This document shows positions 1-19,947 of a stretch of 64,000 nt of DNA, one piece after another. The stretch comes from Candidatus Omnitrophota bacterium (lineage in GTDB: Bacteria; Omnitrophota; Omnitrophia; Omnitrophales; Aquincolibacteriaceae). Made by a program: the position numbers and the translations under genes. Numbering within the stretch: position 1 is the first letter of the stretch; each line of letters starts with the position of its first letter. Where the stretch lies: positions 20,257 through 84,256 of the forward strand of contig JAKJDL010000003.1 of NCBI GenBank assembly GCA_022705945.1, given 5' to 3'. Under the pieces are notes generated by a model. The model saw only the letters and a program-made list of their open reading frames with translations. It was not told the origin of the DNA and ran no database searches.

Positions 1-1078
1 CCACGGCCTTCGCATAAAAAACACCCGCCCTCTCAAGCATCCCGCTCAGGTTGCCCGTTTCCTCCCCGATCGCCACCATCTGGATCAGACTGGCCGGAAT
101 CTTTTTATCGGCTCGCAACATGACCGAGAGGGTCTCTCCCCTTCTCATCCTCTCCGGAAATTCCGCCATAGAACTTTGCAAGACAACGTTTTGCATCACA
201 TCGCTCGCCAGTTCCAGGGCCTTGATAATCGGGACCCCGCTTTTCAAAAGCAATCCCATCGTGGCCAAGAACCTTGAGAACGCGACATCTCGATTCAGGG
301 GACCAAAAACAGGGATCACAAGTTTCAGGGAATCGAGATGATATCTGCCCGGCTTCGTCCTGAGGTAACGCCAGATTCCCCAGGCGGCCAAACCCATAAC
401 GGCAAGGACCAAATACCAGTAGCGGATCACCGCAATTCCAAACACGTACAACACCTGCGTGATTACCGGCAAGTCAACCCCGGCCGTCGAAAAGATGTCA
501 ACAAATTTGGGAACGATAAAAAGCACAAGGAACAAAATCACCGCCATACCCAAACAAAAAAGTAGCGCGGGATAAAAAAGGGCACCCGTTATTTTCCGTT
601 GAATTTCAAGATGTTCATCATACAAAACATTGTAATTCCGAAGCACGGTCTCCAACTCCCCGCTGGCTTCCCCGCTTTTGATCATGCTGACAAACAGCGG
701 CGGGAAAATGTCCTTATGTTGCTCAAACGCATCAGAGATACTGGTGCCTTTTCTGAGAAGAACGACAATGTCGTCTATCGCGTTTTTTAACTTTTGGTTC
801 CGAGTTTGTTCCGCAATCATTTCAAGGCTTTTCAGGAAATTGATCCCGGCGCTCACCATGTCGTAAAGCTGCGAATAAAAGATGAGCAATTCACCGGACC
901 GCACTTTTCCAAAAAGAGGGTCGAAAAACCGCGAATGGGACAGGGTGGATTCCCGAATCTCGACGGGCCGGAGCCCTTTTTCATTGAGTTTTGCCCCGGC
1001 ATCCTTTCTGTCAAAAGCCTCGATGGTTCCCTTGACCTTTTCCCCTTTGACAGTCACCGCCCGGTAAGTAAAAAGCAT
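1..1078 (-). CDS. pilC: Type IV pilus / type II secretion platform protein PilC/GspF family; 3' (C-terminal) end truncated by the window edge
   Basis: Own translation of the minus strand starting at ATG 1078..1076, preceded by a GGAGACGGGG RBS. It gives MLFTYRAVTVKGEKVKGTIEAFDRKDAGAKLNEKGLRPVEI...GEASGELETVLRNYN...LLKSGVPIIKALELASDVM...MVAIGEETGNLSGMLERAG, a typical GspF/PilC duplicated-domain architecture. It is absent from the ORF track because the gene runs past position 1. It sits directly downstream of the PilB-like ATPase. Confidence 0.8.
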   Translation of the reverse strand, partial: MLFTYRAVTVKGEKVKGTIEAFDRKDAGAKLNEKGLRPVEIRESTLSHSRFFDPLFGKVRSGELLIFYSQLYDMVSAGINFLKSLEMIAEQTRNQKLKNAIDDIVVLLRKGTSISDAFEQHKDIFPPLFVSMIKSGEASGELETVLRNYNVLYDEHLEIQRKITGALFYPALLFCLGMAVILFLVLFIVPKFVDIFSTAGVDLPVITQVLYVFGIAVIRYWYLVLAVMGLAAWGIWRYLRTKPGRYHLDSLKLVIPVFGPLNRDVAFSRFLATMGLLLKSGVPIIKALELASDVMQNVVLQSSMAEFPERMRRGETLSVMLRADKKIPASLIQMVAIGEETGNLSGMLERAGVFYAKAV

Positions 1079-1105: not shown

Positions 1106-3214
1106 TCAGAAAGAAGTCCTTCTCAAAAGCATTTTTAACCTTGCCAAAAGTTTGTCGTGATCGAACGGCTTCATCATGTAATCATCCGCTCCGGCATCAA
1201 TTCCTTTCAATTCGCTCTCCTTGTCATGCCGTGCGGTCAGCATGATGATCGGAATAACGGCGGTCTCCAGGCTCGAACGAAGCTGCTTCGTCAGCTCAAA
1301 TCCGTTCATCTTCGGCATCGTCACATCCGTAATGACAAGATCCGGCTTCTCCTGAAAGGCCAGAAGAAGTCCCTCGTTCCCGTCCCTCGCCTTGATCACG
1401 TCGCAGTTGGCCATCACAAGCCGTTTTTCCAAGGCCCGCAGAATATCCTCTTCATCATCCACAATCAGGATCAGGGGGCGTTCACCACGCCTGACCGCCA
1501 TACGGCTTACCTCGTCCTCTTCAAGGACAATGACCCGGGCAAGCTCATCCAGGGTCGTGTGTCCTTCAAGCACCTTCTCAATCGCGACGGTTGATAGCGG
1601 TTTCAACCCTTCCCTCCTGGCCTCGGTAAGAATCTCATTGGCGGAGGCCTTGCGTTCGACCATGGCTTTGATCGATTCCGTAATTTCCAAAACCTCCAGA
1701 ATCGGTATCCGCCCGAAAAATCCCGAAAAACCGCATTCTTCACAACCTTTTCCCCGATAAAACCGGGTCGCACCGGCTTTGTCCAAATAACTCCTGATTT
1801 TTTCAAGTTCGGACGGATCCGGCAGGTATTCCTCCTTGCAACGAGGACATATTCTCTTGATAAGCCTCTGGGCCACAACAACGGCCAGCGATGACGCAAT
1901 CAAATAAGGTTCCAGCCCGAGATCAAGAAGCCGGGTGATTGAGGCCACAGAGCTGTTTGTATGCAAGGTCGACAGTACGAGATGGCCCGTCAGCGACGCG
2001 CGAAAAGCAATGTCCGCGGTTTCCCGGTCCCTTATTTCTCCGACAAATATCACGTTCGGATCCTGCCTCAGGAAACTTCGGAGTGCCGTTGAAAACAGAA
2101 AATCTTTCGCGGGATTAATCTGGGTCTGATTAATACCTTCAATCAGATATTCAATGGGATCTTCTATGGTCACAATATTCTTTGTTTCACATTTGATGTA
2201 ATTCAGCGTCGCATAAAGCGTAGTCGTTTTCCCGGAACCCGTCGGCCCCGTCACCAGAACCATCCCCTGGGGCTTGACAATGTGATTCTTGTACTTTTGC
2301 AGGCTCTTTGGATCAAACCCCACGTTGTCGAGATCGACCCTCATCGCCTTGGGATCCAGTATTCTGATTTCCACTTTTTCCCCGTAGGCGGTCGGGATCG
2401 TTGCAATTCTCAAATCAATCTTTCTGTCCTGAAAAAGCAGCTTGAGCCGCCCGTCCTGGGGTTTCCGTTTTTCCACAACATCCATGCCGGCGAGAATTTT
2501 AATCCGTGCGGCAAGCTCCACCTGCAACTTGGCGGGTACTTCCATGATGTTTCGCAGATCCCCGTCAATCCGGTATCGGACCTTCACCTGATTTTCTTCC
2601 GGTTCAATGTGAATATCGCTGGCCCGGGCCTTGAGCGCATCCTTCATGATCAGGTTGTACAAACGGACAATCGGAGACGCCTCATCCTTCATGGAGGTTT
2701 GGTCGATGACGATTCCTCCGCTCTCTTCTTCCCGAATGATTTCAAACGGAGCTGCGTCGGGGACATTTTTCAGAATATCATAGATGGAATCATCCGTTTG
2801 GTAGTGTTTGTTGATAGCCTTGTTAATATCGCTCTTCGTGCAAAGGGTGGGTTTCACTTTGAGTTTCGTCCGGATCCTCACCTGCTCCATCGCCATGAGG
2901 TCCTGGGGGTTACTCATGGCCAGAACAAGAACATCCCCTTCGCGTCTGACCGGAAATACCCCATATCGCTTGACGATCTCGTATGTCAACAGGCAAAGGG
3001 CTGCAGGATCGATGGTTTCCCTTTCCAGATCAGACAGCGGCATCTTGTAAACCCTGGAGGCCGTTTTAAGGAGATCTTCTTCCTTCAGAAACCCCATCTC
3101 CACAAGGAGTTCATGGACAGGTTTCTTGGCTCCAATCTGCTTCGTTTTCGCATCAGCAAGCTGTTCCGAACTGATTAGCCGCTCTCTGATCAGTTCGTCA
3201 AACAGAGAAGACAT
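1106..3214 (-). CDS. pilB: PilB/GspE-family secretion ATPase with a fused C-terminal response-regulator receiver (REC) domain
   Basis: 702 aa. It has an N-terminal T2SSE_N-like domain, a Walker A motif GPTGSGKTTT, the tetracysteine motif CPRCKEEY...CEECGFSG, and a C-terminal segment LILIVDDEEDILRALEKRL...DLVITDVTMPKMNGFELTKQLR typical of CheY-like receivers (acceptor Asp in DLVITDV). Confidence 0.9.
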   Translation of the reverse strand: MSSLFDELIRERLISSEQLADAKTKQIGAKKPVHELLVEMGFLKEEDLLKTASRVYKMPLSDLERETIDPAALCLLTYEIVKRYGVFPVRREGDVLVLAMSNPQDLMAMEQVRIRTKLKVKPTLCTKSDINKAINKHYQTDDSIYDILKNVPDAAPFEIIREEESGGIVIDQTSMKDEASPIVRLYNLIMKDALKARASDIHIEPEENQVKVRYRIDGDLRNIMEVPAKLQVELAARIKILAGMDVVEKRKPQDGRLKLLFQDRKIDLRIATIPTAYGEKVEIRILDPKAMRVDLDNVGFDPKSLQKYKNHIVKPQGMVLVTGPTGSGKTTTLYATLNYIKCETKNIVTIEDPIEYLIEGINQTQINPAKDFLFSTALRSFLRQDPNVIFVGEIRDRETADIAFRASLTGHLVLSTLHTNSSVASITRLLDLGLEPYLIASSLAVVVAQRLIKRICPRCKEEYLPDPSELEKIRSYLDKAGATRFYRGKGCEECGFSGFFGRIPILEVLEITESIKAMVERKASANEILTEARREGLKPLSTVAIEKVLEGHTTLDELARVIVLEEDEVSRMAVRRGERPLILIVDDEEDILRALEKRLVMANCDVIKARDGNEGLLLAFQEKPDLVITDVTMPKMNGFELTKQLRSSLETAVIPIIMLTARHDKESELKGIDAGADDYMMKPFDHDKLLARLKMLLRRTSF

Positions 3215-3462
3215 AATCTATTTCCTTTTTTGAGAGTCTTTCGGCAGAAACAGTGGGTATTGTGTTTTAAAAAGGCCATATCGTCCAGCAAAATTTGAAG
3301 TTTAAACGGGTTTTCCCCTTGGGGTACCGGGCAGTTATCACTCCTGGCACAACAACCATGCCAACCCCGGAGGATTTCCCGGCACAAAGGGAAGGAAAAA
3401 CAGGGAATTACGATGGAAAGATATAAACCTATGTGCGACCTGAGACATAGGTTAAAGAAAAG

Positions 3463-3536
3463 TGGGCCCGCCTGGACTTGAACCAGGGACCAAGCGATTA
3501 TGAGTCGCCTGCTCTAACCAACTGAGCTACGGGCCC
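3463..3536 (-). tRNA. tRNA-Met (anticodon CAU), elongator-type; could alternatively be tRNA-Ile2 (lysidine)
   Basis: Minus-strand sequence GGGCCCGTAGCTCAGTTGGTTAGAGCAGGCGACTCATAATCGCTTGGTCCCTGGTTCAAGTCCAGGCGGGCCCA folds by hand into a cloverleaf. Acceptor stem 7 bp (GGGCCCG/CGGGCCC), D arm GCTC/GAGC, anticodon stem GGCGA/TCGCT with loop CTCATAA, T arm CCTGG-TTCAAGT-CCAGG, discriminator A. The 1:72 position is a paired G:C, so it is not an initiator. No CCA is encoded. Confidence 0.8.
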
Positions 3537-3637: not shown

Positions 3638-4043
3638 TCAGGAAGATTGAAGTATTTGCTCAACCTTGCTCTGGAGGTTCACAAGGTCGAAGGGTTTTTC
3701 AATGTAACCGCTGATTCCCTCAAGCTCAAAAAGAGACTGCATGGTCGCGCCGGCTCCGGTAAGAATAATCACGGGCGTTTTTCTCAGCCTTGTCTGGGTT
3801 TCGATATTATCGTGGCGGTAGGAACGGAGCTTGCGAAGATAGGTCAGACCGTCTTCGCCGTGCGGGATCCGGACATCGACAAGCACTATGTCGGGGTGAT
3901 GCTCCTCGGTCTTTTTGAGACCTTCGGCGCCTTCGTTCGCCGTCAGAACTTTATAGCCGACCGTTTCGAAACGGGCTTTGACAATCTGACAGATATCATC
4001 CTCGTCATCTATGACCAAAATGCACTTTGAGCCCTCAGGCATG
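3638..4043 (-). CDS. Stand-alone response-regulator receiver domain protein (CheY-like)
   Basis: ILVIDDEDDICQIVKARF...DIVLVDVRIPHGEDGLTYLRKLR...IILTGAG are receiver motifs. The likely start is ATG at 4043 (MPEGSK...) with a GGAGG RBS 5-6 nt upstream; the track ORF extends to 4084. Confidence 0.8.
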
Positions 4044-4113: not shown

Positions 4114-5862
4114 TTACTCACTCAACTTGATATCCAGAAAATTCTTGAGTTTGCGGGCCCGGATCGGATGCCTCAACTTCCGCAAAGCCTTCGCTTCAAT
4201 CTGCCGAACGCGCTCGCGGGTCACATTAAAAATATGCCCCACTTCTTCAAGAGTCCTCGGATAACCATCCCCGATCCCGAACCTGAGCCGGAGAACTTTT
4301 TCTTCTCTCTCGGTCAGCGTCAGAAGCACATCATCCATTTGCTCTTTGAGCATGCTGTAGGCCGTCGCATTCGCCGGAGAAACCGCGGACTTGTCTTCGA
4401 TAAAATCCCCGAAGGTCGTATCTCCCTCGTCCCCGATCGGGGTTTGAAGGCTGATAGGTTCCTGCGCGATCTTGAGAATGCCCTTCACCTTATCAAGCGG
4501 CATTTTCATAACATGCGCCACCTCTTCAGGGGTGGGTTCACGGCCCGTTTCCTGAACCAGATGCCGCGACGCACGGAAAAACTTATTGATCGTTTCTATC
4601 ATGTGGACGGGAATACGAATCGTCCGGGCCTGATCCGCGATCGAACGCGTGATCGCCTGGCGAATCCACCAGGTCGCGTAAGTCGAAAACTTGTAGCCGC
4701 GTTTGTATTCGAATTTATCGACGGCTTTCATCAAACCGATATTTCCCTCCTGGATCAGGTCCAGGAACGAAAGGCCCCGGTTTGTATATTTTTTCGCGAT
4801 ACTCACCACAAGCCGGAGGTTGGCCGCCACAAGCGCTTTTTTAGCTTTGGAGAGCTCATATTCCCGTTTGACTATTCCTTTAAAATGCTCCAGGAGTTTT
4901 TCTTCGGACTCTCCCAATTCTTTCAGAATTTCACGGTTGCGTTCTTCAAGCTTTCCGATTTTCCCGCGGACACTGCTTCTGCGGACTCTTTTGATCTCCT
5001 CGCGATTTTTCCGGAGCTCACGAAGCTTCGCGCGGAGATTCGCCACGATCTTCTCAACGATCTGGATACTGAGATTAAACTGAAACAACAGGGCGGAAAT
5101 ATTGGACTGCTTACGGGACGCTCGAAACTTGCGAATCAGCTGTTGGAGCTTTTTCTTAAGCGTCTGGATCTTGACTTCCTGATCTTCGTCAACAATCTCT
5201 TCAAGCTGAAGCTCTCCGTCCAGGATCTTCCGCGCGATCTCAAGCACCTCATGACGGGCCGCTTTGGTCTGGTAAACAACCTTTTTTAGTTCCTCTTCAC
5301 AGTCCTCGATCTTTTTGGCCAGCGCAATTTCCTGCTCGCGCGTCAAAAGGGCGATCTGTCCCATTTGCCTGAGATAGGTCCGCACGGGATCGTCGATCCT
5401 GACCCGCTCCGGCTCTTCGATCCCGTCTTCTTCTAATTCGGAATCCTTGGTCTTCTTGGCGTCCACATCCTGCAGGACATCTATGGTGGACTTGCCCTGT
5501 TCCCCGATCGCCTCGCTCGTAACCCCGATCCCTTTTTCGTTCAGCTTGGCAATAAGCTCCTCGACCTTATCCGCCGACTGCATGTCGGCGGAAAGATTCT
5601 TTTTCATCTGCTCGATCGTGACAAACCCCTGCTTTTTGCCGAGGGCCATGAGCATTTCAAGAGCCGCGTCCATTTGTTGAGGAGTCACCGAAACGGCTTT
5701 CGCCTTTGAAGACGCGCCGCCCTTAGAGGGCTTCTTGCCGCGGGCACCGGACTTGGAAACGGATTTAACCGTTTTAGGGGAAGGTTTTTTAACCGTCTTT
5801 TTCACCCCGCTCAATCTCCCATTTGAAATGATTTTGAGGATAAGGACACGTTTTCCCGGCAA
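4114..5862 (-). CDS. rpoD: RNA polymerase sigma-70 factor RpoD with a lysine-rich N-terminal low-complexity extension
   Basis: Conserved regions 2-4, e.g. [60 protein letters not shown] and [29 protein letters not shown]. It lies downstream of dnaG, the classic dnaG-rpoD arrangement. The true start is uncertain: ATG 5862 or GTG about 5805 after a GGGAGA. Confidence 0.9.
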
Positions 5863-5965: not shown

Positions 5966-7762
5966 CTATTTTGCCTTGATATCGCGTAAAAGCGCCTGAT
6001 ACTCCCTTGTATAGGTGAGGATCCCCGCGTGATCCCTGGCGGATTCGGCTTCCCGGATCAGCCTCCGCAATTCCTCCAACCGGACGTTCCCGTGGCGGCA
6101 GAGAATCTTATTAAGACAATCTGAAAAAATCCTGCTCTTGTCCTCGGCCTCCTCGATTGCGGCAAGAGCCTCGACAAGCTGCTCCCGGTAACCGGCATCG
6201 GAGACGCTGTTGATGATCGCAGGCAAAGACCTTTTCTTTTTTTGCCTGACGGAATTCAGCAGGAAAGAAAAAAATTCCCGACTGATCGGGGAACCGAGAT
6301 CCTCCTCCTTCAACTGAGCCTCCGCCTGACTCACAAACCCTTCATCTTCCGCCATCAGGGCCAACAGCACTATTTCCTCTTTGGGAACAGATGAAGCGGG
6401 TTTTTTCGTCTCGGGAACTCCGCTCCTTCTTCTCCCCTGCCCGCCAGGATCAGCTTTCGACACTTTCTGAAACTCGGCCCGGAGAGAACCTTCATCGATG
6501 CGAAGCTCGCGGGAAAGACGCTTGATATATTCCGCGCAAATCACGGGACTCGAGACCTTCCGGAAAGTCTCGATCATTTCACGGCTGATCTTGGCTAGCC
6601 CCAGCGCGTCGGCCCTCGGATAACGGCCAAGAAGCATTTTGAGCTTGTAATCAAAAAAGTCCTGGGCGGTCTTCAAAAGTCCCGCAAAAGCCTCCGCTCC
6701 CTTTTTATGAACAAAATCGTCCGGATCAAACCCTTGCGGAAGACTGACAATCTTGACCTGCATCCCGCCTTCAAGCAGGACCTCAAGCCCGCGCATCGCG
6801 GCCGCCTCCCCCGCCTTGTCTCCGTCGTAGACCACGGTCACCTCTTCGGCAAAGCGCTTCATCAAACGAACGTGATCCTCGCCGAGCGCCGTCCCGAGCG
6901 TCGCGACCGTATTTTTGAATCCATACTGGTAAAGCGCGAGAAAATCCATATACCCTTCCACAAGAATCAGGTTCGGCCATTCCCGGTCGATGAATTTTTT
7001 CGCGAGGTTCAAACCGAAGAGCTCCCTGCGTTTTGAAAAGATCGGATTTTCCGGTGAGTTCAGGTATTTGGGTCCCTCACCGTCCCCAAGCAGTCGTCCT
7101 CCGAAAGCAACGGGCCTGTTCTGCAGGTTCATGATCGGAAAAAGAAGGCGCCCCCGGAAGGTGTCGTAGAAATTCCCCTTGGAAGATTGCTGGATGAGCG
7201 CGGACTGTTTAAGAAACGCCTCGGAATACCCTTTGGGGATCAAATGATCATAAAGAGTCCTCCACTCATCGGGCGCCCAGCCAATCCGGAATTCCCGGGC
7301 GATCTCATCCGTGATACCGCGGCTCGCCAGATAGGCCCTCGCCTTTCCCCCGGACTCGCCCCAAAAGAGCTTTTGATAGAAATCGGCCGCGCGCTGATAA
7401 ACTTCGTAGAACTTGTCTTTCTGTGAGGAAGCGCTTCCCGGAAACCGTTTTTCCGGAAGCGTGATATGGGCCCGGTCCGCAAGCATCTTGAGAGCTTCGG
7501 GAAAAGAAAGGTTCTCATAACGCATCAAGAAGCTGAAGACATCCCCTCCCGCCTTGCATCCGAAACAGTGAAACAGTTGTTTTTCCGGATGAACCATGAA
7601 CGAAGGGGTTTTTTCTCCGTGGAACGGGCAACACGCCTTGAAATTACGGCCGGAGCGCTTCAGGGGAACAAACTGGGAGATGATCTCAACAATGTCGTTG
7701 GCTTCGGCCACCCGCTCGACGACATCATCGTGCTCGCGGGCACGGGAAAAATCCGTCCTCAT
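5966..7762 (-). CDS. dnaG: DNA primase DnaG
   Basis: Zinc-ribbon [35 protein letters not shown] and Toprim region [30 protein letters not shown]. Start set at ATG 7762 ([18 protein letters not shown]...). The longer track ORF (to 8047) overlaps the upstream cvpA gene and is rejected. Confidence 0.88.
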
Positions 7763-7767
7763 ACCGG

Positions 7768-8355
7768 TCAGGCCGCCGGCTTTTTGTCGGCGCCCCGCAT
7801 CCCGGGGAATGGAGCCGTGGCAAATTGCTGAATGACCGGAGCGAGGCTTGCGATTGTCTTTCCCGAATAGGAACCGCGGGACGTGAACGGTTTTTTGATA
7901 TCCTCTCCGGGCATAAAAAGGATCACCTGGACAAGGAAGCTCAAAAGCAGCGCGCAGTAAAGTCCCCCGAAAATAACGCCGCCAATAAATCTCAGGAAAG
8001 AAGATACGTCGACCCTGAATATCTTGCCGGCAAAATTGAATACCCACCCAACAAGCAACCAGACGACGGCCGCGAGCGGGATAAACACCACGGGATCTGC
8101 CATTTCACGGTTGAGGGCGGGGATGATTTTTATCAAGTAGGCGCTGATCAAGGGATAAAAGGACAGCGTAAAAACAATGATCAGAAGGATCTCCAGAACC
8201 CTTGCGAACATCTCGACAAAGCCTTTCTTGGCGCCCTGGAGCATTCCGGAGAGAACGAAAAAAAGCACGACCCAGTCAATAACCGCAAACTCTCGGACGA
8301 CGGTATAGAATGCGGTTTTCTGAACATCATCAATCAGCTTCCACAAAAAATCCAT
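7768..8355 (-). CDS. cvpA: CvpA-family membrane protein (colicin V production protein-like)
   Basis: 195 aa, four predicted TM helices; N-terminal FAVIDWVVLFFVLSGMLQGAKKGFVEMF resembles the CvpA consensus. Confidence 0.6.
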   Translation of the reverse strand: MDFLWKLIDDVQKTAFYTVVREFAVIDWVVLFFVLSGMLQGAKKGFVEMFARVLEILLIIVFTLSFYPLISAYLIKIIPALNREMADPVVFIPLAAVVWLLVGWVFNFAGKIFRVDVSSFLRFIGGVIFGGLYCALLLSFLVQVILFMPGEDIKKPFTSRGSYSGKTIASLAPVIQQFATAPFPGMRGADKKPAA

Positions 8356-8358
8356 TCC

Positions 8359-9669
8359 CTACCCCCCTTCATCTGAACCTTGGACATCTCCAAGGCAACC
8401 GTCATCGCAAAGATCCCTCAGGATCACGGGTATGATACATCCTCGGATGTCCCGAGGGAAATCAAAAAACACTCGAAGATAATTCGGAGCGTACCCCTCC
8501 CAACAACCCGTTCCCGGATCCCTGTGTTCCGCGAGCACTTTAAATTCCCGTCCCAAAAATTCTTCCCGGACTTCCGCTGAAATTTGTCCGCTCCACTCGG
8601 ATATCCGCCGAACCCGTTCCCGGACAACAGTGCCGGGAAGAATTTTTAAACGATCAGCACGCGTCCCCTTCCGTCTGCTGAACGGGAAAATATGACTTTT
8701 GAGCGGACGAACATTTTTTAAAACCTCCAGGCTTTTCAAAAAAGCGTCTTCCGTTTCACCGGGAAATCCGACCATGACGTCCAGACTCAAACAGAAATCC
8801 GGCACCGCTTCGCGAAGTTTACTGATCGTTTCGATATAGAGCGAGGGCGAGTAGCGCCTGTTCATTTGTTTGAGAACCGCATCATCCCCGCTTTGCAAAG
8901 GGATATGAACATGCGGGCAAAGCTTCGGCACTTCCCGGAACGCGCCGATCAAAGACTCCCGGATATCCGTCGGCTCGACCGAACTCAGACGGATCCTTTC
9001 GATCCCTTCGAATTCGGCGCAATCCCGGATCAACTCCGCCAGGGCTCCCTCGTTCCCTTTCTCCAGGCCGTAGGCCCCGAGCTGAATACCCGTGAGAATA
9101 ATCTCACGGTAACCCGCGTCACGAAGCCGCCGAACTTCCTCGAGAACATCCCGCGGCGGACGGCTCCTCGAACGTCCCCGGGCAAGCACGACCTTGCAAT
9201 AGCTGCAGGAATGATTGCAGCCATCCTGAATTTTCACGTTCGCCCGCGTCCGGCCGTCGCTTTTGGCGATTTCAAGAGGAAGAAACTCTGTCCCTTGCGA
9301 CGCCGGGCCGGGACATGAGCCGTGTCCACCGCCGGTCAGAACTTCGGCGATCCGGTTCTTCCCCTGGTTGGAGAAAATCATATCGACTTCGGGCATCCTC
9401 TCGAGAACATCCCGGTCCGTTTCCGCGAAACATCCCGTTACAACCAGCCGGCACTCGGGATACTCGCGCTTTAACCGGCGGATCCAGTTACGGTTGGCGC
9501 GATCGGCATCCCCAGTCACCGTGCAGGTATTCACGATCACAAGATCAGCGGACCCGCTCCCCTCCGTGACTTCCCGGGCGCCCGTTTTCTCAAGGGACTC
9601 GCGTATCGCCTGAGTCTCGTATTGATTGACCTTGCAGCCGAATGTTTTAAGAAGGAATTTTTTCGTCAT
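8359..9669 (-). CDS. mtaB: Radical-SAM methylthiotransferase, MtaB/MiaB/RimO family (most like MtaB)
   Basis: N-terminal MTTase motif KTFGCKVNQYETQ, radical-SAM CNHSCSYCKV cluster, C-terminal TRAM-like region. Confidence 0.8.
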   Translation of the reverse strand: MTKKFLLKTFGCKVNQYETQAIRESLEKTGAREVTEGSGSADLVIVNTCTVTGDADRANRNWIRRLKREYPECRLVVTGCFAETDRDVLERMPEVDMIFSNQGKNRIAEVLTGGGHGSCPGPASQGTEFLPLEIAKSDGRTRANVKIQDGCNHSCSYCKVVLARGRSRSRPPRDVLEEVRRLRDAGYREIILTGIQLGAYGLEKGNEGALAELIRDCAEFEGIERIRLSSVEPTDIRESLIGAFREVPKLCPHVHIPLQSGDDAVLKQMNRRYSPSLYIETISKLREAVPDFCLSLDVMVGFPGETEDAFLKSLEVLKNVRPLKSHIFPFSRRKGTRADRLKILPGTVVRERVRRISEWSGQISAEVREEFLGREFKVLAEHRDPGTGCWEGYAPNYLRVFFDFPRDIRGCIIPVILRDLCDDGCLGDVQGSDEGG

Positions 9670-9720
9670 TTTTGTTATTGAAGGAATCGCGCAAACTGCG
9701 CCCCGCCGGGAGTGTCCGGT

Positions 9721-10530
9721 TCAGATGATTTCCAGGAATCGGAGAGCGCTGAGGACTCCGACAAAAGCCGTATCCGCTTTAAGTACCGTATCGCCCAGGC
9801 CGACAACCCATGTATTTTCGCCGGCCCGACAAGAAAGCGCCCGGCCGATCTCTTCGTCCGTAAAACCGCCCTCCGGACCGATGAGAACGTTAAGGGATTT
9901 AAAATCATTTGTTCTTACCCTGAAAGCCTCCGCCCATTTCATAAAAGCCGGGGAGTCCGGGCCGGGATGAAAGATCACAAGCGCGTCCTCCGGCCCCAAA
10001 CTTTCAACGGCCCGCGCGAACATTTTCGGCTCCGTGATTTTTACGGTTTTCAGGACACCGGACTGCTTGCTCGCCTCGACCGCGATCCTGCGCCAGCGGT
10101 CCGCGGTTTTTGAGATCCTGTCGCCGGGTATTTTGACTTCGCAGCGGTCAGAAAAAATCGGGAAAAATTCATCCGCTCCAAGCTCCTGCGCTTTTTCAAC
10201 CAGAAGATCGTTCTTTCCCTTCTGCAAAAGAGCCGGCATCATCCGTAGGAAAATCTTGTTAGGCCGCGCCTCTACTTTTCTTTTGATTCCGAGAATGGCG
10301 AGCCGGGTCCTTCCGTCCCTGAGGAATTCGCAAATCTCCGCCTCCGCCTCCCATCCCTGCCCGTCCGTCACGAGACAACGGTCGCCGACACCGAGACGTA
10401 TGATGTCCCGGAGGTGGCGGGTCTCACCGGGCTCGATGAAAATAATACCCTGGGCCTGGCTAAGCGGCCGAGGAATATAAAAACGACGGAGACGGCGGCC
10501 CTGCTGCTTGTGGTTTTGTCTTGGATCCAT
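9721..10530 (-). CDS. rsmE: 16S rRNA (uracil1498-N3)-methyltransferase RsmE
   Basis: RRFYIP...IEPGETRHLRDIIRLGVGDRCLVTDGQGWEAEAEI N-terminal PUA-like region and a C-terminal SPOUT region ending VGLGDTVLKADTAFVGVLSAL. Confidence 0.8.
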   Translation of the reverse strand: MDPRQNHKQQGRRLRRFYIPRPLSQAQGIIFIEPGETRHLRDIIRLGVGDRCLVTDGQGWEAEAEICEFLRDGRTRLAILGIKRKVEARPNKIFLRMMPALLQKGKNDLLVEKAQELGADEFFPIFSDRCEVKIPGDRISKTADRWRRIAVEASKQSGVLKTVKITEPKMFARAVESLGPEDALVIFHPGPDSPAFMKWAEAFRVRTNDFKSLNVLIGPEGGFTDEEIGRALSCRAGENTWVVGLGDTVLKADTAFVGVLSALRFLEII

Positions 10531-10577
10531 TTCGTCCTGTTCCGAACACGAAATCCGAATGAGCGGATCGCCGTGCT

Positions 10578-10749
10578 CTTCGGATCTGCTTTGCGAAAGC
10601 GGTTATCCCCCGCATTCAAGCACATCCTTCGGATCTGCTTTGCGAAAGCGGTTATCCCTCGCATTCAAGCACATCCTTCGGATCTGCTTTGCGAAAGCGG
10701 TTATCCCTCGCATTCAAGCACATCCTTCGGATCTGCTTTGCGAAAGCGG
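10578..10749. repeat. Intergenic direct tandem repeat, 49-bp unit x about 3.5 copies, each unit containing a short hairpin (CTGCTTTGCGAAAGCGG)
   Basis: Units start at 10578, 10627, 10676 and 10725 (partial): CTTCGGATCTGCTTTGCGAAAGCGGTTATCCC[C/T]CGCATTCAAGCACATC. Copies 2 and 3 are identical; copy 1 differs by one base. The period is not a multiple of 3 and it lies between csp and rsmE. Confidence 0.9.
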
Positions 10750-10837
10750 GATAAAAAAACAAGGGAAGCTCAGGCCAAAACCCGAGCTTCCCCATGCGTT
10801 AAAAAAAATAATTCCGGAACAAAAAAATAGAGCGGAG

Positions 10838-11110
10838 CTACTTTCCGTCTTTTTTCTTTTCTTCAGCCTTGGCTTCTCCAGAGGCCGACTCTTCTTTAGG
10901 TTTTTTGGTCCGGACAACGTTTTGGGCCTGAGGGCCTTTCTCACCCTGGACAATTTCGAACTCCACCTCTTCGTCAGGATTCAGCCGTTTGTAGCCTTCT
11001 CCCTGAATGGCTGAGTAGTGGATAAAAATATCCCGCTCTTCGCCCTCCTTACGGAGAAAACCATAGCCCTTCACATTTGAGAACCATTTCACCTTGCCTT
11101 TTTCAGCCAT
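10838..11110 (-). CDS. Cold-shock protein (CspA family) with a C-terminal Lys/Glu-rich tail
   Basis: [62 protein letters not shown] (RNP1/RNP2 motifs) followed by [24 protein letters not shown]. Confidence 0.9.
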
Positions 11111-14600: not shown

Positions 14601-15043
14601 TACGGGATCTCGCCCTTCAACCCGCCCGAGAGGCAGATCAGGTCTTTTCCCAATTCCTTCAGCACCTCTTTATCAACGCGGGGGCGGTAGTAGAACCCTT
14701 CGGTATAACCGATGCTGGCCAGACGGGTAAGATTCTTGTAGCCCTCTTCGTTTCTCGCGAGAAGGGTCAGATGGAAAGAGGCTTCTTTGATGCCGTGGGC
14801 CTGTTTTTCAAGTCTCGATCCGGGCGCCACATAGGTGCGCATGCCGATAATCGGCTTGATACCCGCTTTCATCGCCTGGGAGTAAAACTGGATCGCACCG
14901 AACAGGTTCCCGTTGTCGGTCATGGCAAGCGCCGGGAACCTGAGCTCCGCGGAACGTTTCATCAGGCCGGAGATCTTGCACGTCGCGTCAAGAAGACTGA
15001 ACTCGGTGTGACAATGAAGATGGACAAAATCGGTACGAGACAT
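11603..15043 (-). CDS. dnaE: DNA polymerase III alpha subunit DnaE
   Basis: 1146 aa. N-terminal PHP domain HLHCHTEFSLLDATCKISGL, polymerase core, and a C-terminal OB region. Confidence 0.95.
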   Translation of the reverse strand: MSRTDFVHLHCHTEFSLLDATCKISGLMKRSAELRFPALAMTDNGNLFGAIQFYSQAMKAGIKPIIGMRTYVAPGSRLEKQAHGIKEASFHLTLLARNEEGYKNLTRLASIGYTEGFYYRPRVDKEVLKELGKDLICLSGGLKGEIPYYLYHDQINEAKKVIDEYIAIFGRENFFLEVMDHGLDPEKRVIAESRRLAKDFEIGLAATNDVHYIYQNEAMAHDALICIGTGSQLDEPNRLRYQGDQYYLKSAEEMKQLFKELPEAITNTVRIAERCNVEFDFNKVYLPQFRPPEGKTQEQYLREICQEKLRARMGGDIPGEYQKRLEMETDLISKMGYVSYFLVVWDFIRFAKEKNIPVGPGRGSAAGSLVSYALHITDIDPLKHHLYFERFLNPERVSMPDIDIDFCYERRDEVIDYVKRKYGGDKVAQIITFGTMKAKAVIRDVGRVMGLSYGEADAIAKMIPNELNITIEQAIAKEPALKEQIAKDSRIAQLIETSKALEGLSRHASIHAAGVVISDVPLTERVPLFKTEDQVCTQFTMKDLEKIGLLKMDFLGLKTLTVIDEAVKIVKKMHGIQLDIHTLPEDDPETYEMLSKGDAFGVFQLESSGMRDLLKKMKPEKFDHLVALLALYRPGPLGSGMVDDFVKRMRDPRLIKYDHPELEPSLKETYGVILYQEQVMRIVSDLAGFTLAQADSLRRAIGKKIPEVMAKEKKSFIDGATKRGVKEKIAEKVWEQIDYFSGYGFNKSHSTAYAAVSYQTAYLKAHYPVEFMTALLTSEMNNTDKIVQYIEACKKMGIEVLPPAVNESYNEFTCVGKHIRFGLAAIKNVGGVAIESIIASRTKDGPFKNFFEFVQRVDLRVCNRKVLESLIKCGAFDEWNLHRSQLMAVLDGALEMGSSLQKDRNRGQMSFFESDGTRDAFHDESGTIPDIPEWPENQCLAYERELIGFYVSSHPLSKHTKILKNYASATSATLPEFSHQAEATMGGIIDQLKEILTKKGDKMAFLTLQDLSGSCEVVVFPSVYKEVVSLMQKDQLVFVRGKVDARDDNPKILADEIVPLDEVPKRFTRMVAINLKTAGLSPDTLKDIRKILLRHKGSVPVYISLSDPKGRRTILDSGDNLKVETSDALFEELEQLLGENSVKIRS

Positions 15044-15141
15044 ATCGTTCGGGACTCGCGCGTCGGGACTCGTTGAATACCTTTCGGCCGCAAAAATGAA
15101 ACGAGGGACGAGTCCCTAGTCCCCAGTCCCGCCTTTGCGTG

Positions 15142-16683
15142 CTATTCCCACTCGATCGTTGCCGGGGGTTTCGAGGAAATATCGTAAGTAACGCGGTTAA
15201 TGCCCCGGACCTCATTGATGATCCGGTTCGAGATGCGCCCCAGAAGATCGTAGGGCAATTTGGCCCAGTCCGCCGTCATCCCGTCAAGTGACGTCACGGC
15301 GCGGATCGCGACCGCGTTCTCATACGTCCGCTTATCCCCCATCACGCCGACGCTCTGGACCGGCAGAAGCACCGCGAAAGACTGCCAGACCTTGTCATAG
15401 TAGCCGCTTTTTTTGATCTCATCGACCACGATCCAGTCTGCCCGACGGAGAAGGTCGCAGCGATCCTTCCGGACTTCCCCGAGGATGCGAACCGCAAGAC
15501 CCGGCCCGGGAAAAGGCTGACGGCCGACAATGTCCTTGTCGATCCCGAGCGCGTAACCGACCGCACGGACCTCGTCCTTGAAAAGCTCCTTGAGCGGCTC
15601 GATCAGCTTGAATTTCATGTCCTTCGGAAGACCGCCGACGTTGTGGTGGCTCTTGATCGTACTCGTCGGTCCGCCAAAATAGGAGACGGACTCGATCACG
15701 TCGGGATAGAGCGTCCCCTGCGCGAGGAACGGCACCTTTCCCAGCTTGTTCGCTTCCTTCTGAAACACGTCAATAAAGGTCTTGCCGATGATCTTGCGCT
15801 TCTGTTCGGGATCGGTCACACCTTTGAGGCGGGTCAGGAAGATCTTCTCCGCATCAATCACTTTCAGATTCATCTTGAAATGCCCGCGGAACGTTTTATC
15901 GACCCGCTCGACTTCGTTCAGACGCAAAAGCCCGTGGTCCACAAAAATGCAGGTCAGCTGTTTCCCGATCGCTTTGTGGATGAGCCCCGCGACCACCGAC
16001 GAGTCGACCCCGCCCGAAAGTCCGAGCACTACGCGGTCCTTGCCGACCTGCTTCCGGATCTTCTTGACGGTTTCATTGATGAACGACCGCGGCGTCCAGC
16101 TCTTTTTACATCCGCAGACCCGGACAAGGAAATTTTCAAAAATCTTGGAACCGAACTCCGTGTGAGCGACCTCCGCGTGAAACTGGATCGCGTAGATCTT
16201 CTTCCTGGGATCGCCCATCGCCGCGAACGGGGCGTTCTCGGTGTAGGCTAGCCGCTCAAACCCGTGCGGGATCCTGTCCAGCTTGTCGCCGTGGCTCATC
16301 CAGCACGTGAGTGTCCGGGGAATACCCTTAAAAAGAGCGCTTTCGCGTTTCGAAACGTGAAGTTTGGCAAATCCGTATTCGCGTTTTCTGGATTTATGGA
16401 CACGGCCGCCAAGCTTGTGGGAAAGGATTTGCATCCCGTAGCAAATCCCGAGGATCGGGAGGCCGCAATAGAAGAAGCGTTTGTCCGGAACCGGCGCGTT
16501 TTTGGAGCGGACATCGGCTGGGGAACCGGAAAATATGATCCCCTTCGGGTTATCCTCCATGACCTTTTCAAAGGGCACATAGAATGGATAAACTTTGGAG
16601 AACACCTTGTTCTCGCGCACGCGGCGCGCGATCAGCTGAGTATATTGCGATCCAAAATCAAGAACAACTATCGTTTGATCCAT
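15142..16683 (-). CDS. guaA: GMP synthase (glutamine-hydrolysing) GuaA
   Basis: GATase domain (VLDFGSQYTQLIARRVRE, catalytic Cys in GICYGMQ) plus ATP-PPase SGGVDSSV and C-terminal dimerisation domain ending PPATIEWE. Confidence 0.95.
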   Translation of the reverse strand: MDQTIVVLDFGSQYTQLIARRVRENKVFSKVYPFYVPFEKVMEDNPKGIIFSGSPADVRSKNAPVPDKRFFYCGLPILGICYGMQILSHKLGGRVHKSRKREYGFAKLHVSKRESALFKGIPRTLTCWMSHGDKLDRIPHGFERLAYTENAPFAAMGDPRKKIYAIQFHAEVAHTEFGSKIFENFLVRVCGCKKSWTPRSFINETVKKIRKQVGKDRVVLGLSGGVDSSVVAGLIHKAIGKQLTCIFVDHGLLRLNEVERVDKTFRGHFKMNLKVIDAEKIFLTRLKGVTDPEQKRKIIGKTFIDVFQKEANKLGKVPFLAQGTLYPDVIESVSYFGGPTSTIKSHHNVGGLPKDMKFKLIEPLKELFKDEVRAVGYALGIDKDIVGRQPFPGPGLAVRILGEVRKDRCDLLRRADWIVVDEIKKSGYYDKVWQSFAVLLPVQSVGVMGDKRTYENAVAIRAVTSLDGMTADWAKLPYDLLGRISNRIINEVRGINRVTYDISSKPPATIEWE

Positions 16684-16763
16684 GTCAAGATCCTGTCGGA
16701 ACGCGTACCCGGGGACCTGCCCTTCGAAAAATTTTAACGGGTCCCGGGCTACGAGTTCCCTGT

Positions 16764-17924
16764 TTATTTACACATTCCGAGTTTCTGGGCGGATTGAAAA
16801 AGCTTTCCCTCGGTCTTGATCGCGGGAGCGATCACGATCTCGGTCAGCTGCATCTCGCGGATATTCTTCGCGCCGACGTTCCCCATCGAAGTCCGAAGCG
16901 CACCGACAAGATTCTGGGTCCCGTCGTCAAGACGCGCGGGGCCGTAGAGGATCTCTTCAAGGGAGCCGGTCGTCCCCACATGAATGCGGGTGCCGCGCGG
17001 CAGGTTTGCGTGCGGAGTCGCCATCCCCCAGTGGAAACCGCGTCCCGGAGCTTCTTTCGTCCTGGCAAATGCGGAACCGACCATCACGCCGTCCGCGCCG
17101 CTTGCAATCGACTTGCAAATATCACCGCCGGTCGACATACCGCCGTCCGCGATAATCGAAACGTATTTACCGGTCTTTTTGTAATAATATTCGCGGGCGG
17201 CCGTGCAATCAGCGATAGCGGTCACCTGGGGCACCCCGATCCCGAGGACCCCGCGCGTTGTGCACGCCGAACCGGGACCGATGCCCACGAGCAGAGCAGC
17301 CGCTCCGGTCTCCGCCAATTCAAGAGCCACTTTGTAGGTAACGCAATTCCCGAGAACAACCGGAATCTTCATTTTTTTGCAGAATTTTTTGAAATCAACA
17401 ACCTGGTAGGCCTTGGCGATATGACGGACCGTCGTCACGGTCGATTGAACCACAAACACATCCGCGCCCGCCTCTTCGGCAATCTTCCCGAACCGCTCGG
17501 CCCGCTGAGGGATCGCGGAAACCGCGCAAGGGACCTTCGCCTTTTTGATCTCCCGGATACGTTTGGCGATCAGCTTCTCGTTAATCGGCTTGACGTAGAG
17601 CTTCTGGACAAGCTGAGTCGCTTTTTCGGGAGAGGCTTTCGAGATCTCATCCAGAATGGTCTCGTAGTCATCATACCGGACATAAATCCCCTCAAGATTC
17701 AGCACAGCAAGGCCGCCAAGCTTCCCCATCGCGACCGCGAACTTCGGGTCCACTACCCCGTCCATGGCAGAGGCCAGGAACGGAATGGGAAGCGTCATTT
17801 TCCCGAGAGGCATACTGATATCCACTTCTTCGGGATTGATCGTTACATCCCCGGGGACAAGCGCGATCTCGTCAAATCCGTAGGATCTGCGGGCTTTGCG
17901 GTCTTTTCCGATAAAAACTGACAT
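16764..17924 (-). CDS. IMP dehydrogenase / GMP reductase family protein lacking the CBS subdomain
   Basis: 386 aa. Catalytic loop [20 protein letters not shown] and phosphate-binding [27 protein letters not shown]. No CBS insert; adjacent to guaA. Confidence 0.8.
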
Positions 17925-17952
17925 GTGATTTCTCCTTTTTAACAGTTAAAAG

Positions 17953-17991
17953 AAAAAGGACAGGCCGTTAATGAACGCCTGTCCCTTTTTG
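17953..17991. terminator. Bidirectional rho-independent terminator downstream of the pilin operon
   Basis: GGACAGGC-(11 nt loop)-GCCTGTCC flanked by an A-run upstream and CTTTTTG downstream. Read on the minus strand it gives the same stem followed by a U-run. Confidence 0.55.
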
Positions 17992-18198
17992 AAAAAAAGC
18001 ACAAAGCAACGCGCGTTTCGCGCGGCCTTGTGCCTTGAAATGTTGCTGAGCGGATACTATTGACTGTCCCATTTGCGGTATCATACTAAAGGCTTTTTTT
18101 CTTGTCAACGAGCTCCCGGCAGGATTTGGAAAATCCACGCACAACGACACAAGAACAGACCCAATTCTCAAAACTCGATACTGTCCCGCAACCAATAC

Positions 18199-18582
18199 TT
18201 AACTTGCGGGTTTGTATCTGGATGTCCCGTTAAACTCCCCTTCCTCGTCAATGATAATCGTATCCGTCGTTCCCTGCCGTGTCGCCGTCGCTGTAAAATC
18301 ATCCGGAGTTTCACTTTCGATGGCAAAATTATAGGGAGTTCCGGTAATATCAACCGCCAAATGCGTCTTGATCACCTTCGGATCGTTGCTGACAAGAAAA
18401 AAGTCGTTTTTGGAGTAATACATTTGCTGTCCCGCTTTGATCATGCGCAGATAAGCCGCCGCCTGGTTTGCCTTTGATTTTTCAACACCTTCAAGAAATT
18501 TCGGAACAGTAAGCGCAACAAGGACGCCGACAAGAACCACCACTATGAGAATCTCGACAAAAGTAAATCCCTTGTTTTTCAT
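18199..18582 (-). CDS. Type IV pilin / pseudopilin (prepilin-type N-terminal cleavage/methylation domain)
   Basis: MKNKGFTFVEILIVVVLVGVLVALTVP: class III signal peptide with the G/FTxxE motif. Confidence 0.85.
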   Translation of the reverse strand: MKNKGFTFVEILIVVVLVGVLVALTVPKFLEGVEKSKANQAAAYLRMIKAGQQMYYSKNDFFLVSNDPKVIKTHLAVDITGTPYNFAIESETPDDFTATATRQGTTDTIIIDEEGEFNGTSRYKPAS

Positions 18583-18630
18583 GGAAAAGCTCCTGTCGCT
18601 ATTTTGTTGATAACGCCGGAAGTGATTCGG

Positions 18631-19029
18631 TTAATTTTGGGGTGTATATTTAGATTTCCCACCAAAGGTTCCGTCCTGATCGAGTGTGATTGTATTGCCG
18701 GAGCCGTCATTGCGAGTCGCTGTTATAAGAAAACCATCTTCAGTAACTCTGACCGTAAAGTCATAATTCGAATCCGAAACCTCGACATCCAGATTGTCCC
18801 TCATCTCATCGAGATTCTCCCAATTGCTATAGGCCGCATTTTTTGAATAATACATTTTCTGCGCCGTCCGGATCATGCGAAGGTAATTGATCGCTTCATT
18901 GGCCCGGGCTTTTTCAATATGCTCTTGCAATTGCGGAACCGCAATCGATGCCAGGATGCCCGCGAGAATAACCGCGATAAGAATTTCAGTCAACGTAAAG
19001 CCTTTTTTCATAGCTCTGTGCCCCTTCAA
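18631..19029 (-). CDS. Type IV pilin / pseudopilin paralog (prepilin-type N-terminus)
   Basis: ...MKKGFTLTEILIAVILAGILASIAVP. It shares the YLRMI...QKMYYSKN core with the neighbouring pilin. The true start is probably the internal Met at 19011. Confidence 0.85.
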   Translation of the reverse strand: MKGHRAMKKGFTLTEILIAVILAGILASIAVPQLQEHIEKARANEAINYLRMIRTAQKMYYSKNAAYSNWENLDEMRDNLDVEVSDSNYDFTVRVTEDGFLITATRNDGSGNTITLDQDGTFGGKSKYTPQN

Positions 19030-19072
19030 TCTGTTTTATCTGTTTTCCCAACGAAAAAGCCGGCCCAAAACA

Positions 19073-19378
19073 TCAGAGATCCGGATAATCCACGCTAATA
19101 TCCAGCCGGTGTACACCCGGCCCGATATCGGTGGCTACAATTTCGATCGGCCATTCTTCGCCACGCAGTGTTTCGCTGGCACACCCGCTTGTGCGGCATC
19201 TCCATATGGCATGCTGCATTCCGGCCTGGGCCAAATATTGAGCCTTCAGCTCCTGGAGATTCTTTGTCTTCATATCCGCCTGGCTTCCCAGCGATTGGAG
19301 AATAGTCACGATCCCGACCGTAACAATAATCAAAACCGCCAAAACAGTGATTAATGCGAAGCCGTTTTTCCGTTTCAT
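19073..19378 (-). CDS. Minor pseudopilin with prepilin-type N-terminus
   Basis: MKRKNGFALITVLAVLIIVTVGIVTIL (GspK/PilX-like N-terminus). Confidence 0.7.
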   Translation of the reverse strand: MKRKNGFALITVLAVLIIVTVGIVTILQSLGSQADMKTKNLQELKAQYLAQAGMQHAIWRCRTSGCASETLRGEEWPIEIVATDIGPGVHRLDISVDYPDL

Positions 19379-19947
19379 TGTTGCGCACTCCGCGACCGCA
19401 TAATCGCGACCGTTGACAAGATTTCTTTTGGCCCTTCCGCGGGCTGAGCTTCAAGATCGACCTGTATCCTGTTCCCGTCCGCAGGATCCCGAGTGAAAGC
19501 AATCGAAACAATATCACCCGCTATAACAACGTCGGGCGACTCAGGGCCAGAACCCCTCTTGCGTTTGCGCTTCAGCTGCGTTCCGTCCTGCCAATAGGTA
19601 TAAACAGCATCGTCAGTATAATCCGCCGGTGTGGGATCCGCCGCCCCGGCATCCCGTCCAACATCCGATCGAATTTCAATCGACGACGAACCGGGGCTCG
19701 GGGCAGGGCTGAGCGTCGTTGCCGGAATCTTCACATCATTCGCCAGACTAATTCTCTTGATTATTTCTTCATAAGCTCCCAGAGCCGTAGCCATAAGCGA
19801 TTCTTCCGATCTGACCACGTTGAAAGAAAAATTGGCGAAATTAACCATCAGCGTGAATGCGCCCACCACAACAATTCCCAGGAGAACGCTGGCCGCCAAA
19901 AACTCCATCAAGCTCAAACCTCTCATGCCAAGCGTTAATCGTCCCAT
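19375..19947 (-). CDS. Minor pseudopilin (GspJ/PilW-like) with prepilin-type N-terminus
   Basis: MRGLSLMEFLAASVLLGIVVVGAFTLM; Pro/Ser/Ala-rich middle region. Confidence 0.65.
   Translation of the reverse strand: MGRLTLGMRGLSLMEFLAASVLLGIVVVGAFTLMVNFANFSFNVVRSEESLMATALGAYEEIIKRISLANDVKIPATTLSPAPSPGSSSIEIRSDVGRDAGAADPTPADYTDDAVYTYWQDGTQLKRKRKRGSGPESPDVVIAGDIVSIAFTRDPADGNRIQVDLEAQPAEGPKEILSTVAIMRSRSAQQ

Follow-up and report, generated by a model that had tools for sequence, protein, structure and literature searches.

How the extension motors of type IV pili are switched on and off is a standing question, and the inputs known so far are cyclic di-GMP (c-di-GMP), PilZ/FimX and, in a manner that is unclear, response regulators acting in trans. 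The motors best described at the structural level, the PilB proteins of Geobacter (5TSG, 5ZFR and 6OLJ) and Myxococcus (3JC8) and the PilF protein of Thermus, consist of an N-domain, an N2 domain and a C-terminal domain with Walker motifs and a zinc site, have a platform protein of the PilC type as partner, and carry no receiver at their carboxy-terminus. Here we describe a gene that addresses this question, located at positions 1106 to 3214 of the minus strand in a 64,000-nucleotide stretch of DNA (hereafter the window) from a Candidatus Omnitrophota bacterium, in which an ATPase of this kind is followed in the same reading frame by a complete receiver domain. We consider it probable that one and the same product is both the assembly ATPase of a type IV filament (pilus or pseudopilus) and a two-component response regulator.

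Several described systems share part of this design. In NtrC, NtrC1 and DctD a receiver is tethered to a ring ATPase, and phosphorylation controls the assembly or activity of the ring through receiver dimerisation. These proteins belong to another branch of the ATPase superfamily, their receiver is N-terminal whereas that of the fused ATPase is C-terminal, and they act in transcription rather than in a membrane machine; NtrC1 and DctD would be the closest mechanistic analogy, not relatives. Accordingly no Sigma54_activat match (PF00158) was found in the fused open reading frame (ORF) with Pfam, only weak generic P-loop matches below the cut-off. The c-di-GMP-responsive MshE and PilB ATPases have the PF05157 N-domain in common with our protein and likewise hold a signalling input within the motor polypeptide (PMC5013675), but in the fused ATPase the predicted input, a phospho-receiver, sits at the other end of the chain and the RLG...Q motifs are absent. 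Combinations of MshEN and receiver are also known, such as Bd2402 (receiver and MshEN_N), and the accessible portion of that paper makes no mention of an ATPase with a C-terminal receiver (PMC5013675). In Synechocystis the PATAN-REC regulators PixG, PixE and LsiR bind PilB1 directly (10.1101/2021.06.11.447907), and in Pseudomonas PilG and PilH influence the localisation of PilB (PMC11656802). In both cases, as proposed here, the extension motor is under the control of CheY-type receivers that lie downstream of a kinase, with several receivers per kinase; however, those receivers are separate proteins, whereas in the fused ATPase the receiver is covalently attached and the kinase is a classical HisKA sensor kinase, not CheA. 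A 2024 review of PilB regulation never uses the words "receiver" or "fused" and notes that an interaction between PilG or PilH and PilB has not been reported (PMC11656802). A genomic study of the Omnitrophota found type IVa pilus (T4aP) genes to be near-universal and thought to mediate host attachment, and leaves PilB, response regulators and two-component systems unmentioned (PMC10066038). We found no description of a receiver-fused PilB or GspE in the full-text literature searched, which mostly excludes subscription journals, so an earlier mention elsewhere is possible.

Anatomy and conservation of the fused ATPase

The fused gene and its parts are as follows; the four receiver positions at the end were verified by translation.

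1106..3214, minus strand: fused ATPase-receiver gene, a single ATG-to-stop ORF of 702 amino acids (stop codon at 1106..1108)
2780..3214, minus strand: N-terminal domain of MshEN/GSPII type, residues 1-145 (PF05157 at residues 56-143, 75.1 bits)
1535..2686, minus strand: ATPase core, residues 177-560 (PF00437, T2SSE, 449.8 bits against a cut-off of 24.9)
2225..2248, minus strand: Walker A motif GPTGSGKT, residues 323-330 (exact sub-coordinates, translated)
1733..1849, minus strand: tetracysteine zinc motif CPRC...CEEC (C456, C459, C491 and C494)
1472..1534, minus strand: flexible linker, residues 561-581 (AlphaFold2 pLDDT below 50 at residues 566-577)
1109..1471, minus strand: receiver (REC), residues 582-702 (PF00072 at residues 582-693, 97.5 bits against 30.2)
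1454..1459, minus strand: acidic pair DD of the receiver (D586/D587)
1325..1327, minus strand: predicted phospho-acceptor D630
1235..1237, minus strand: receiver T660
1169..1171, minus strand: receiver K682

An earlier note on this DNA had read an ATPase core and a complete receiver in one frame, and the uninterrupted ORF of 702 amino acids agrees with that reading: its translation contains neither a stop nor a frameshift between the two parts, and the three Pfam domains (PF05157, PF00437 and PF00072) all score far above their gathering cut-offs. Since the protein itself has no exact database record, relatives with 93% and 90% identity were used in its place. When 5.8 billion clustered proteins were searched, the best 120 matches were 51-93% identical, about 700 amino acids long each, and all 120 had the same three domains. 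The named organisms among them were all Candidatus Omnitrophota or Omnitrophica, except for one labelled just "bacterium", and the database names of such proteins are generic ("response regulator", "ATPase, T2SS/T4P/T4SS family"). Because the three-domain architecture is found in every one of these homologs, the fusion is, on this comparison, neither a product of chance nor an assembly error.

The alignment used to assess conservation comprised 69 family members. In the ATPase part, the Walker A residues G323, P324, T325, G328, K329 and T330 are invariant, as are E351-D352-P353 of the Asp box, G392-E393 and R395-D396 of Walker B, T409-G410-H411 and H418 of the His box, and the four zinc cysteines. 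In the receiver, D587, D630, T660, Y679, K682 and P683 are each present in 69 of 69 sequences and D586 in 66. The completeness of the receiver claimed earlier thus extends to the whole family, where all residues needed for phosphorylation, including the conserved Asp and Lys, are invariant; since they are under such strong selection, the receiver is almost certainly phosphorylated in this family. One might still suppose that it is a pseudo-receiver acting independently of phosphorylation, as pseudo-receivers do occur in pilus regulators (the receiver of FimX lacks the acceptor Asp; PMC11656802), or that the fusion arose in sequencing or assembly. We regard both as very improbable, given that all five catalytic and switch positions are invariant and that the fusion recurs across many samples and sources in over 120 independent clusters, as well as in 88 of the best 150 representatives of the wider census described below.

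The AlphaFold2 (AF2) model of the monomer has three confident modules (mean pLDDT 84). Its receiver runs from beta1 to alpha5 in the canonical (beta-alpha)5 order with a pLDDT of about 89, and the linker is disordered. Across the family the linker has a median length of 19 residues and is poorly conserved. The solved receivers closest to that of the fused protein are PleD REC1, PhoP, RpaA and ArlR. Receivers of this type signal by phosphorylation-induced dimerisation through the alpha4-beta5-alpha5 face. On the corresponding surface E668, D677, D678 and R692 are invariant in the 69 sequences, and a Lys or Arg at position 688 is conserved or nearly so.

To place the family in a wider context, 1.84 billion representatives clustered at 50% identity were searched exhaustively with a profile, and the best 150 were classed with sub-profiles cut from the family alignment. 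At this level of clustering the Omnitrophota family shrinks to essentially one representative. Among the best 150, a ranking that favours receiver-bearing proteins and therefore gives lower bounds and no proportions, at least 88 have a C-terminal receiver (one of them three receivers), at least 8 have an N-terminal receiver, and 14 are tandem double ATPases of about 1000 amino acids, the remainder being plain or having multiple MshEN domains. Named receiver fusions outside the Omnitrophota come from the Elusimicrobia and candidate division WOR-3, and a protein labelled Deltaproteobacteria (L007) is likewise fused. The linkers of other receiver-fused PilB-like ATPases reach about 260 residues. 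These proteins embody the same idea, in N-terminal, triple-receiver and long-linker forms as well, and apparently none has been studied. The earlier statement that receivers normally reside on separate proteins is true of the model systems that have been studied, but in metagenomes receiver-fused PilB-like ATPases are numerous. As further oddities, some PilB-like representatives have up to four successive MshEN-type N-domains, and some are 1400-1500 amino acids long with a long unannotated stretch after the receiver; unusual architectures are listed under P0125, P0128, P0130-P0132 and others, P0122, and P0181, P0188 and P0193.

In a neighbour-joining tree of the ATPase cores (no support values), the proteins with a C-terminal receiver mostly group together, which would fit a single ancient fusion or a few of them, in a sample that is biased toward receiver-bearing matches and in which some of the apparently receiver-less tips are truncated. 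A split form also occurs in the Omnitrophota, where a PilB of 556 amino acids is followed by a separate receiver protein of 286 amino acids (L051).

The N-domain has taken a different course. The c-di-GMP receptor of MshEN domains is made of two tandem 24-residue motifs, RLGxx[LVI][LVI]xxG[LVI][LVI]xxxxLxxxLxxQ, for which a relaxed search form exists too (Wang et al. 2016, PMC5013675). Neither the strict nor the relaxed form matches any of the 69 family members. Among 73 control PilB-like ORFs of other phyla, from loci found in a genome-collection scan with generic Walker-motif patterns and mostly receiver-less PilBs, the relaxed motif was present in 28 and the strict one in 8 (the matches listed included L006, L007, L036 and L051). 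In the family the R and G of the RLG are replaced throughout, by S/T/A and I/T/L in motif 1 and by P and Q/H in motif 2, yet conservation is strong over the first 60 residues (G28-A29-K30-K31-P32 and M40-G41-F42, for instance), so that the N-domain appears to be under selection for something other than canonical c-di-GMP binding. The authors who defined the motif caution that imperfect copies may still bind (PMC5013675). We rejected c-di-GMP acting through MshEN as the canonical input of the fused ATPase. The fused protein labelled Deltaproteobacteria retains two relaxed motifs.

Pilus or pseudopilus as the output

The features that bear on the filament itself are the platform gene next to the fused ATPase and a pilin locus 15 kb away from it.

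2..1078, minus strand: platform protein PilC/GspF, partial, 359 of about 402 amino acids, running off the window (PF00482, T2SSF, 169 bits)
18199..20339, minus strand: five tandem pilin-like genes, a second pilin locus and possible substrates

The platform gene starts 27 nt after the stop codon of the ATPase gene and has its own AAGGAG ribosome-binding site, in keeping with the operon with pilC proposed earlier. In the second pilin locus, 18199..18582 and 18631..19029 encode paralogous canonical type IV pilins of 127 and 132 amino acids with N_methyl and ComP_DUS matches above cut-off, and 19073..19378, 19375..19947 and 19935..20339 have prepilin-like (minor-pilin-like) N-termini.

The best NCBIfam model for the ATPase is PilB (TIGR02538, 605.5 bits, below the equivalog cut-off of 675.65), ahead of GspE (TIGR02533, 548.4 bits, below its cut-off of 630.25). 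The structures closest to the ATPase part are those of Geobacter PilB; the solved PilB chains of Geobacter and Myxococcus and Thermus PilF align over residues 4-565 with about 450 bits, whereas solved GspE/EpsE align just from about residue 97-177 onward with 363-385 bits, and none of the aligned chains reaches into the receiver. A tetracysteine zinc motif is typical of extension and not of retraction ATPases. The protein would therefore be a PilB/GspE-family type IV filament assembly ATPase that leans to PilB, with pilus and pseudopilus both possible, because neither equivalog cut-off is reached. The name PilB given at first was right as to family and too specific beyond it, as the platform protein and the operon pilin of relatives resemble GspF and GspG.

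These same resemblances raise the possibility that the machine is a pseudopilus similar to the one in a type II secretion system (T2SS), or else a filament of the competence type, instead of an extended type IVa pilus, and that the receiver controls secretion or uptake. Besides the platform protein, which scores best against GspF (304.7 bits, below the cut-off of 424, against 229.7 for PilC), and the pilin, which matches T2SSG (25 bits, cut-off 21), the absence of PilM/N/O/P/Q and PilT from the operon of the relatives inspected, a difference from the PilB systems, fits such a machine, as does another Omnitrophota genome (L036) with a separate canonical T4aP cluster in which two PilBs lack a receiver and MshEN occurs as a protein of its own, together with PilC, a pilin and PilM. 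On the other hand, the ATPase scores better as PilB than as GspE by model and by structure, its full-length alignment is to PilB only, and a secretin and GspC/L/M were likewise not seen in the operon. We judge a pseudopilus or competence-type filament somewhat unlikely, and it concerns what the motor drives, not whether phosphorylation controls it.

The locus in relatives and its candidate sensor kinase

On the minus strand of the window the order of genes is dnaG, rpoD, a single-domain receiver, tRNA-Met, the fused ATPase and pilC.

5966..8047, minus strand: dnaG
4114..5862, minus strand: rpoD
3638..4042, minus strand: single-domain receiver of 134 amino acids, upstream of the fused gene (PF00072, 74.1 bits)
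3462..3536, minus strand: tRNA-Met (CAT), found by ARAGORN (Rfam tRNA, 71.8 bits)

In the three relatives whose fused ATPase is 93% identical (L086-L088), this order is shared from dnaG or rpoD onward. There, the fused gene is followed by PilC (402 amino acids in L088), a GspG-like major pilin with the processing site KG|FTLIE, two N_methyl-like minor pilins, a protein of 387 amino acids, a kinase of 1245 amino acids with CHASE, five PAS, HisKA and HATPase_c domains, and a receiver of 124 amino acids. Pilins also follow the platform gene in L089 and L001. The 387-amino-acid protein (L088, 6115..7278; orthologs in L086, L087 and L089) has an N-terminal membrane anchor, a repetitive C-terminal part and just a weak bactofilin-like match, and may belong to the filament as a tip protein or adhesin.

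More distant Omnitrophota lineages (L003, L004/5, L090 and L091) have no pilC-pilin block at the site of the fused gene; in these, a single-domain receiver lies 1-15 nt upstream of it, and kinases and receivers occur in the flanks. Such an upstream receiver is present in six of the seven annotated Omnitrophota lineages, and in L006 a PAS kinase is directly downstream of the fused gene. No MCP or CheW genes were seen in the inspected loci.

The kinase core of L088 (residues about 996-1245; gene at 7330..11067) was compared by BLAST with every kinase in the inspected loci, and each locus contained exactly one strong match: L003_HK1 (60% identity, 280 bits), L004_HK (54%, 258 bits), L091_HK (54%, 259 bits), L090_HKup3 (53%, 254 bits) and L006_HK (40%, 196 bits), against at most 34% and 139 bits for all other kinases of these loci. 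The identities of the kinase core and of the ATPase-receiver fusion run parallel (92/90, 60/59, 53/58, 54/55, 54/53 and 40/46), as is expected of co-inherited partners, and by these comparisons one orthologous kinase core is co-inherited with the fused ATPase in six lineages. The sensor domains of this kinase are swapped between lineages (CHASE/PAS, dCache/PAS, HAMP/PAS, PAS alone or a receiver). Two mutual-best groups emerge among the single-domain receivers, one of those located after the kinase (44-52% identity) and one of those upstream of the fused gene in four lineages (40-55%), and both families are co-inherited with the fused ATPase in the lineages sampled. By synteny with the 93%-identical relatives, the better candidate for the partner kinase in the genome of the window would be the CHASE/PAS kinase just past the left edge of the window.

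In a 90%-identical relative (L001, about 10050 and 14615..18991; L002) codon 18 of the fused gene is an in-frame TAG, where the window has CAG, and the gene is called from a later Met as a protein of 664 amino acids. There, the partner kinase is split into a PAS part of 858 amino acids and a kinase part of 448 amino acids by a Y1 (IS200-like) transposase gene. These breaks may reflect decay of the module or assembly errors.

The earlier note had instead named genes farther along the window as candidates for the cognate phosphodonor, among them the first two listed here; the third is their neighbour.

38354..39898, minus strand: GAF-HisKA-HATPase_c kinase
37947..38321, minus strand: single-domain receiver, directly after the kinase
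36652..37950, minus strand: HD-GYP (HD_5) protein

The genes it listed do exist, with the one correction that the receiver upstream of the fused gene ends at 4042 and not at 4043. Single-domain receivers are nevertheless acceptors (competitors or sinks) and do not qualify as phosphodonors. As to the kinase at 38354..39898, it is the sole histidine kinase inside the 64-kb window, and orphan cross-talk with the fused receiver is possible on sequence grounds. However, it is directly followed by its own receiver and the HD-GYP protein, with which it looks like a self-contained, split RpfG-like c-di-GMP phosphodiesterase module (36652..39898), and its core matches that of L088 at 34% over 112 amino acids only (57 bits, against 254-280 bits for the orthologs). 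It is thus not orthologous to the co-inherited kinase, we rejected it as the best donor candidate, and that it would serve the fused receiver seems highly doubtful. Because of this HD-GYP module, the organism would appear to use c-di-GMP, although the fused ATPase lacks the MshEN motif.

The gap of 423 nt upstream of the fused gene, which measures 1-15 nt in other lineages, is explained by the tRNA-Met that sits in it and that is kept between the receiver and the fused gene in L088 and L001. The idea of a regulatory RNA in this gap was dropped: a sub-threshold Plastid-ycf2 match corresponds to the antisense of the tRNA-Met, and the remaining leader of the fused gene folds no better than shuffled sequences (z = -0.53). 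About 130 nt upstream of the start of the fused gene there is a conserved element, TTGGCATGGTTGTTGTGCCA (3345..3364, minus strand), a near-palindrome (TTGGCA-N9-TGCCA) with a resemblance to a sigma-54 -24/-12 promoter (TGGCAT-N5-TTGT) as well; in relatives it differs by single substitutions.

Other features were seen in passing. In Candidatus Gygaella obscura (L004/L005, 1617..9558) the pair formed by the receiver and the fused ATPase has a complete operon for a V/A-type ATPase directly upstream. The housekeeping genes of the window, which include dnaG, rpoD, dnaE, guaA/B and ileS, agree with an Omnitrophota origin, as does the giant ORF listed here with the other notable genes.

45583..49791, minus strand: four-gene ABC cluster with an ABC_tran ATPase, an ABC-2 permease, a GldG-like ABC_transp_aux protein and a DUF4340 protein
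51156..63263, minus strand: giant ORF of 4035 amino acids with HEAT repeats, an ILEI domain and a weak DUF218 match, mostly unannotated

Elsewhere, four-gene ABC clusters of this kind are linked to gliding-type transporters. Giant ORFs have been reported as a hallmark of the Omnitrophota, and co-location of ATPase and T4aP genes has also been reported for them, there with F-type 2/3 complexes (PMC10066038).

Proposed control of the motor and its meaning for the Omnitrophota

The note had proposed that phosphorylation controls pilus assembly or secretion. This is the natural reading, since every phosphorylation residue is invariant across the family, and we retain it with a mode of action that is conjectural. 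The co-inherited kinase, with its lineage-specific periplasmic or cytoplasmic sensor, would phosphorylate D630. Phosphorylation would then switch the tethered receiver, most likely through PleD/OmpR-like dimerisation of receivers on adjacent protomers or through its docking to or release from the ATPase, so that the six receivers of a hexamer would be paired or docked when phosphorylated. Such a switch could alter the assembly of the hexamer, its conformational cycle or its ATP turnover and thereby gate filament extension, and its direction may be either activation or inhibition as far as the sequence tells. The two single-domain receivers would draw on the same kinase in competition, as sinks for phosphate or as adaptors; the one encoded at 3638..4042 has the DD, D, T and K residues, and is thus predicted to be phosphorylatable, and has an insertion before beta4. 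With the canonical c-di-GMP motif gone from the family, the direct input would be phosphotransfer in place of c-di-GMP. More tentatively, and with the odds slightly against it in our estimation, the motor could be the output domain of a dedicated, co-inherited module, made up of one kinase with interchangeable periplasmic sensors, the receiver borne by the motor and two competing receivers, that replaced c-di-GMP control.

A different role for the receiver would be that of a phosphate sink, or of a tag for localisation or recruitment that depends on phosphorylation, brings the motor to a particular machine or pole and leaves its ATPase activity unchanged. In Pseudomonas, PilG and PilH affect the localisation of PilB rather than its activity, and PilH is a proposed phosphate sink (PMC11656802); the flexible linker without a predicted docking interface and the several receivers per kinase in these loci would also suit such a role. 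Nevertheless a phosphate sink needs no covalent tie to a hexameric motor, both the fusion and its short linker have been kept over 50% divergence, and the invariant residues on the alpha4-beta5-alpha5 surface suggest a specific protein-protein output. We therefore think a sink or tag unlikely, if less so than the pseudo-receiver or the kinase at 38 kb, and favour a receiver that acts on the motor.

Several points weigh against a motor controlled by its own receiver and a dedicated kinase. The evidence consists of anatomy, conservation and co-inheritance. AF2 predicts no confident interface between receiver and ATPase (pTM 0.59), so the coupling mechanism is drawn by analogy only. The genomic context is that of about seven independent lineages, a small sample. 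The window stops within pilC, and the kinase, pilins and downstream receiver of this genome are placed solely by synteny with relatives of 90-93% identity. The upstream receiver of the window's clade is divergent, with 34-36% identity to those of other lineages, which leaves its orthology unclear. One relative of 69% identity (L089) has PilC and pilins and no adjacent receiver or kinase, and neither pilus nor receiver genes lie within 10 kb of an Elusimicrobia homolog (L092), where just a kinase fragment with an unrelated core (50 bits) occurs at the edge of the locus.

Receiver fusions are common in general, and the value of this one lies in its combination with an identifiable partner kinase, which makes phospho-control testable. 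What appears to be new is a filament assembly ATPase that bears its own receiver within a conserved module of one kinase and three receivers. A conserved covalent fusion of a receiver with PilB, together with that kinase, is a "Rosetta stone" and speaks for the ability of receivers to act on the motor directly; with one polypeptide and one kinase core, it is also a simple, purifiable system in which to follow the effects of phosphorylation on a PilB-type hexamer. If the reading is true, it would be the first natural evidence of a CheY-type receiver acting physically on a PilB-type ATPase. For the Omnitrophota, which are ultra-small and possibly host-dependent, it would mean a direct, fast, post-translational switch of filament extension that answers host or surface cues, and the variable sensors of the partner kinase point to what their cells sense.

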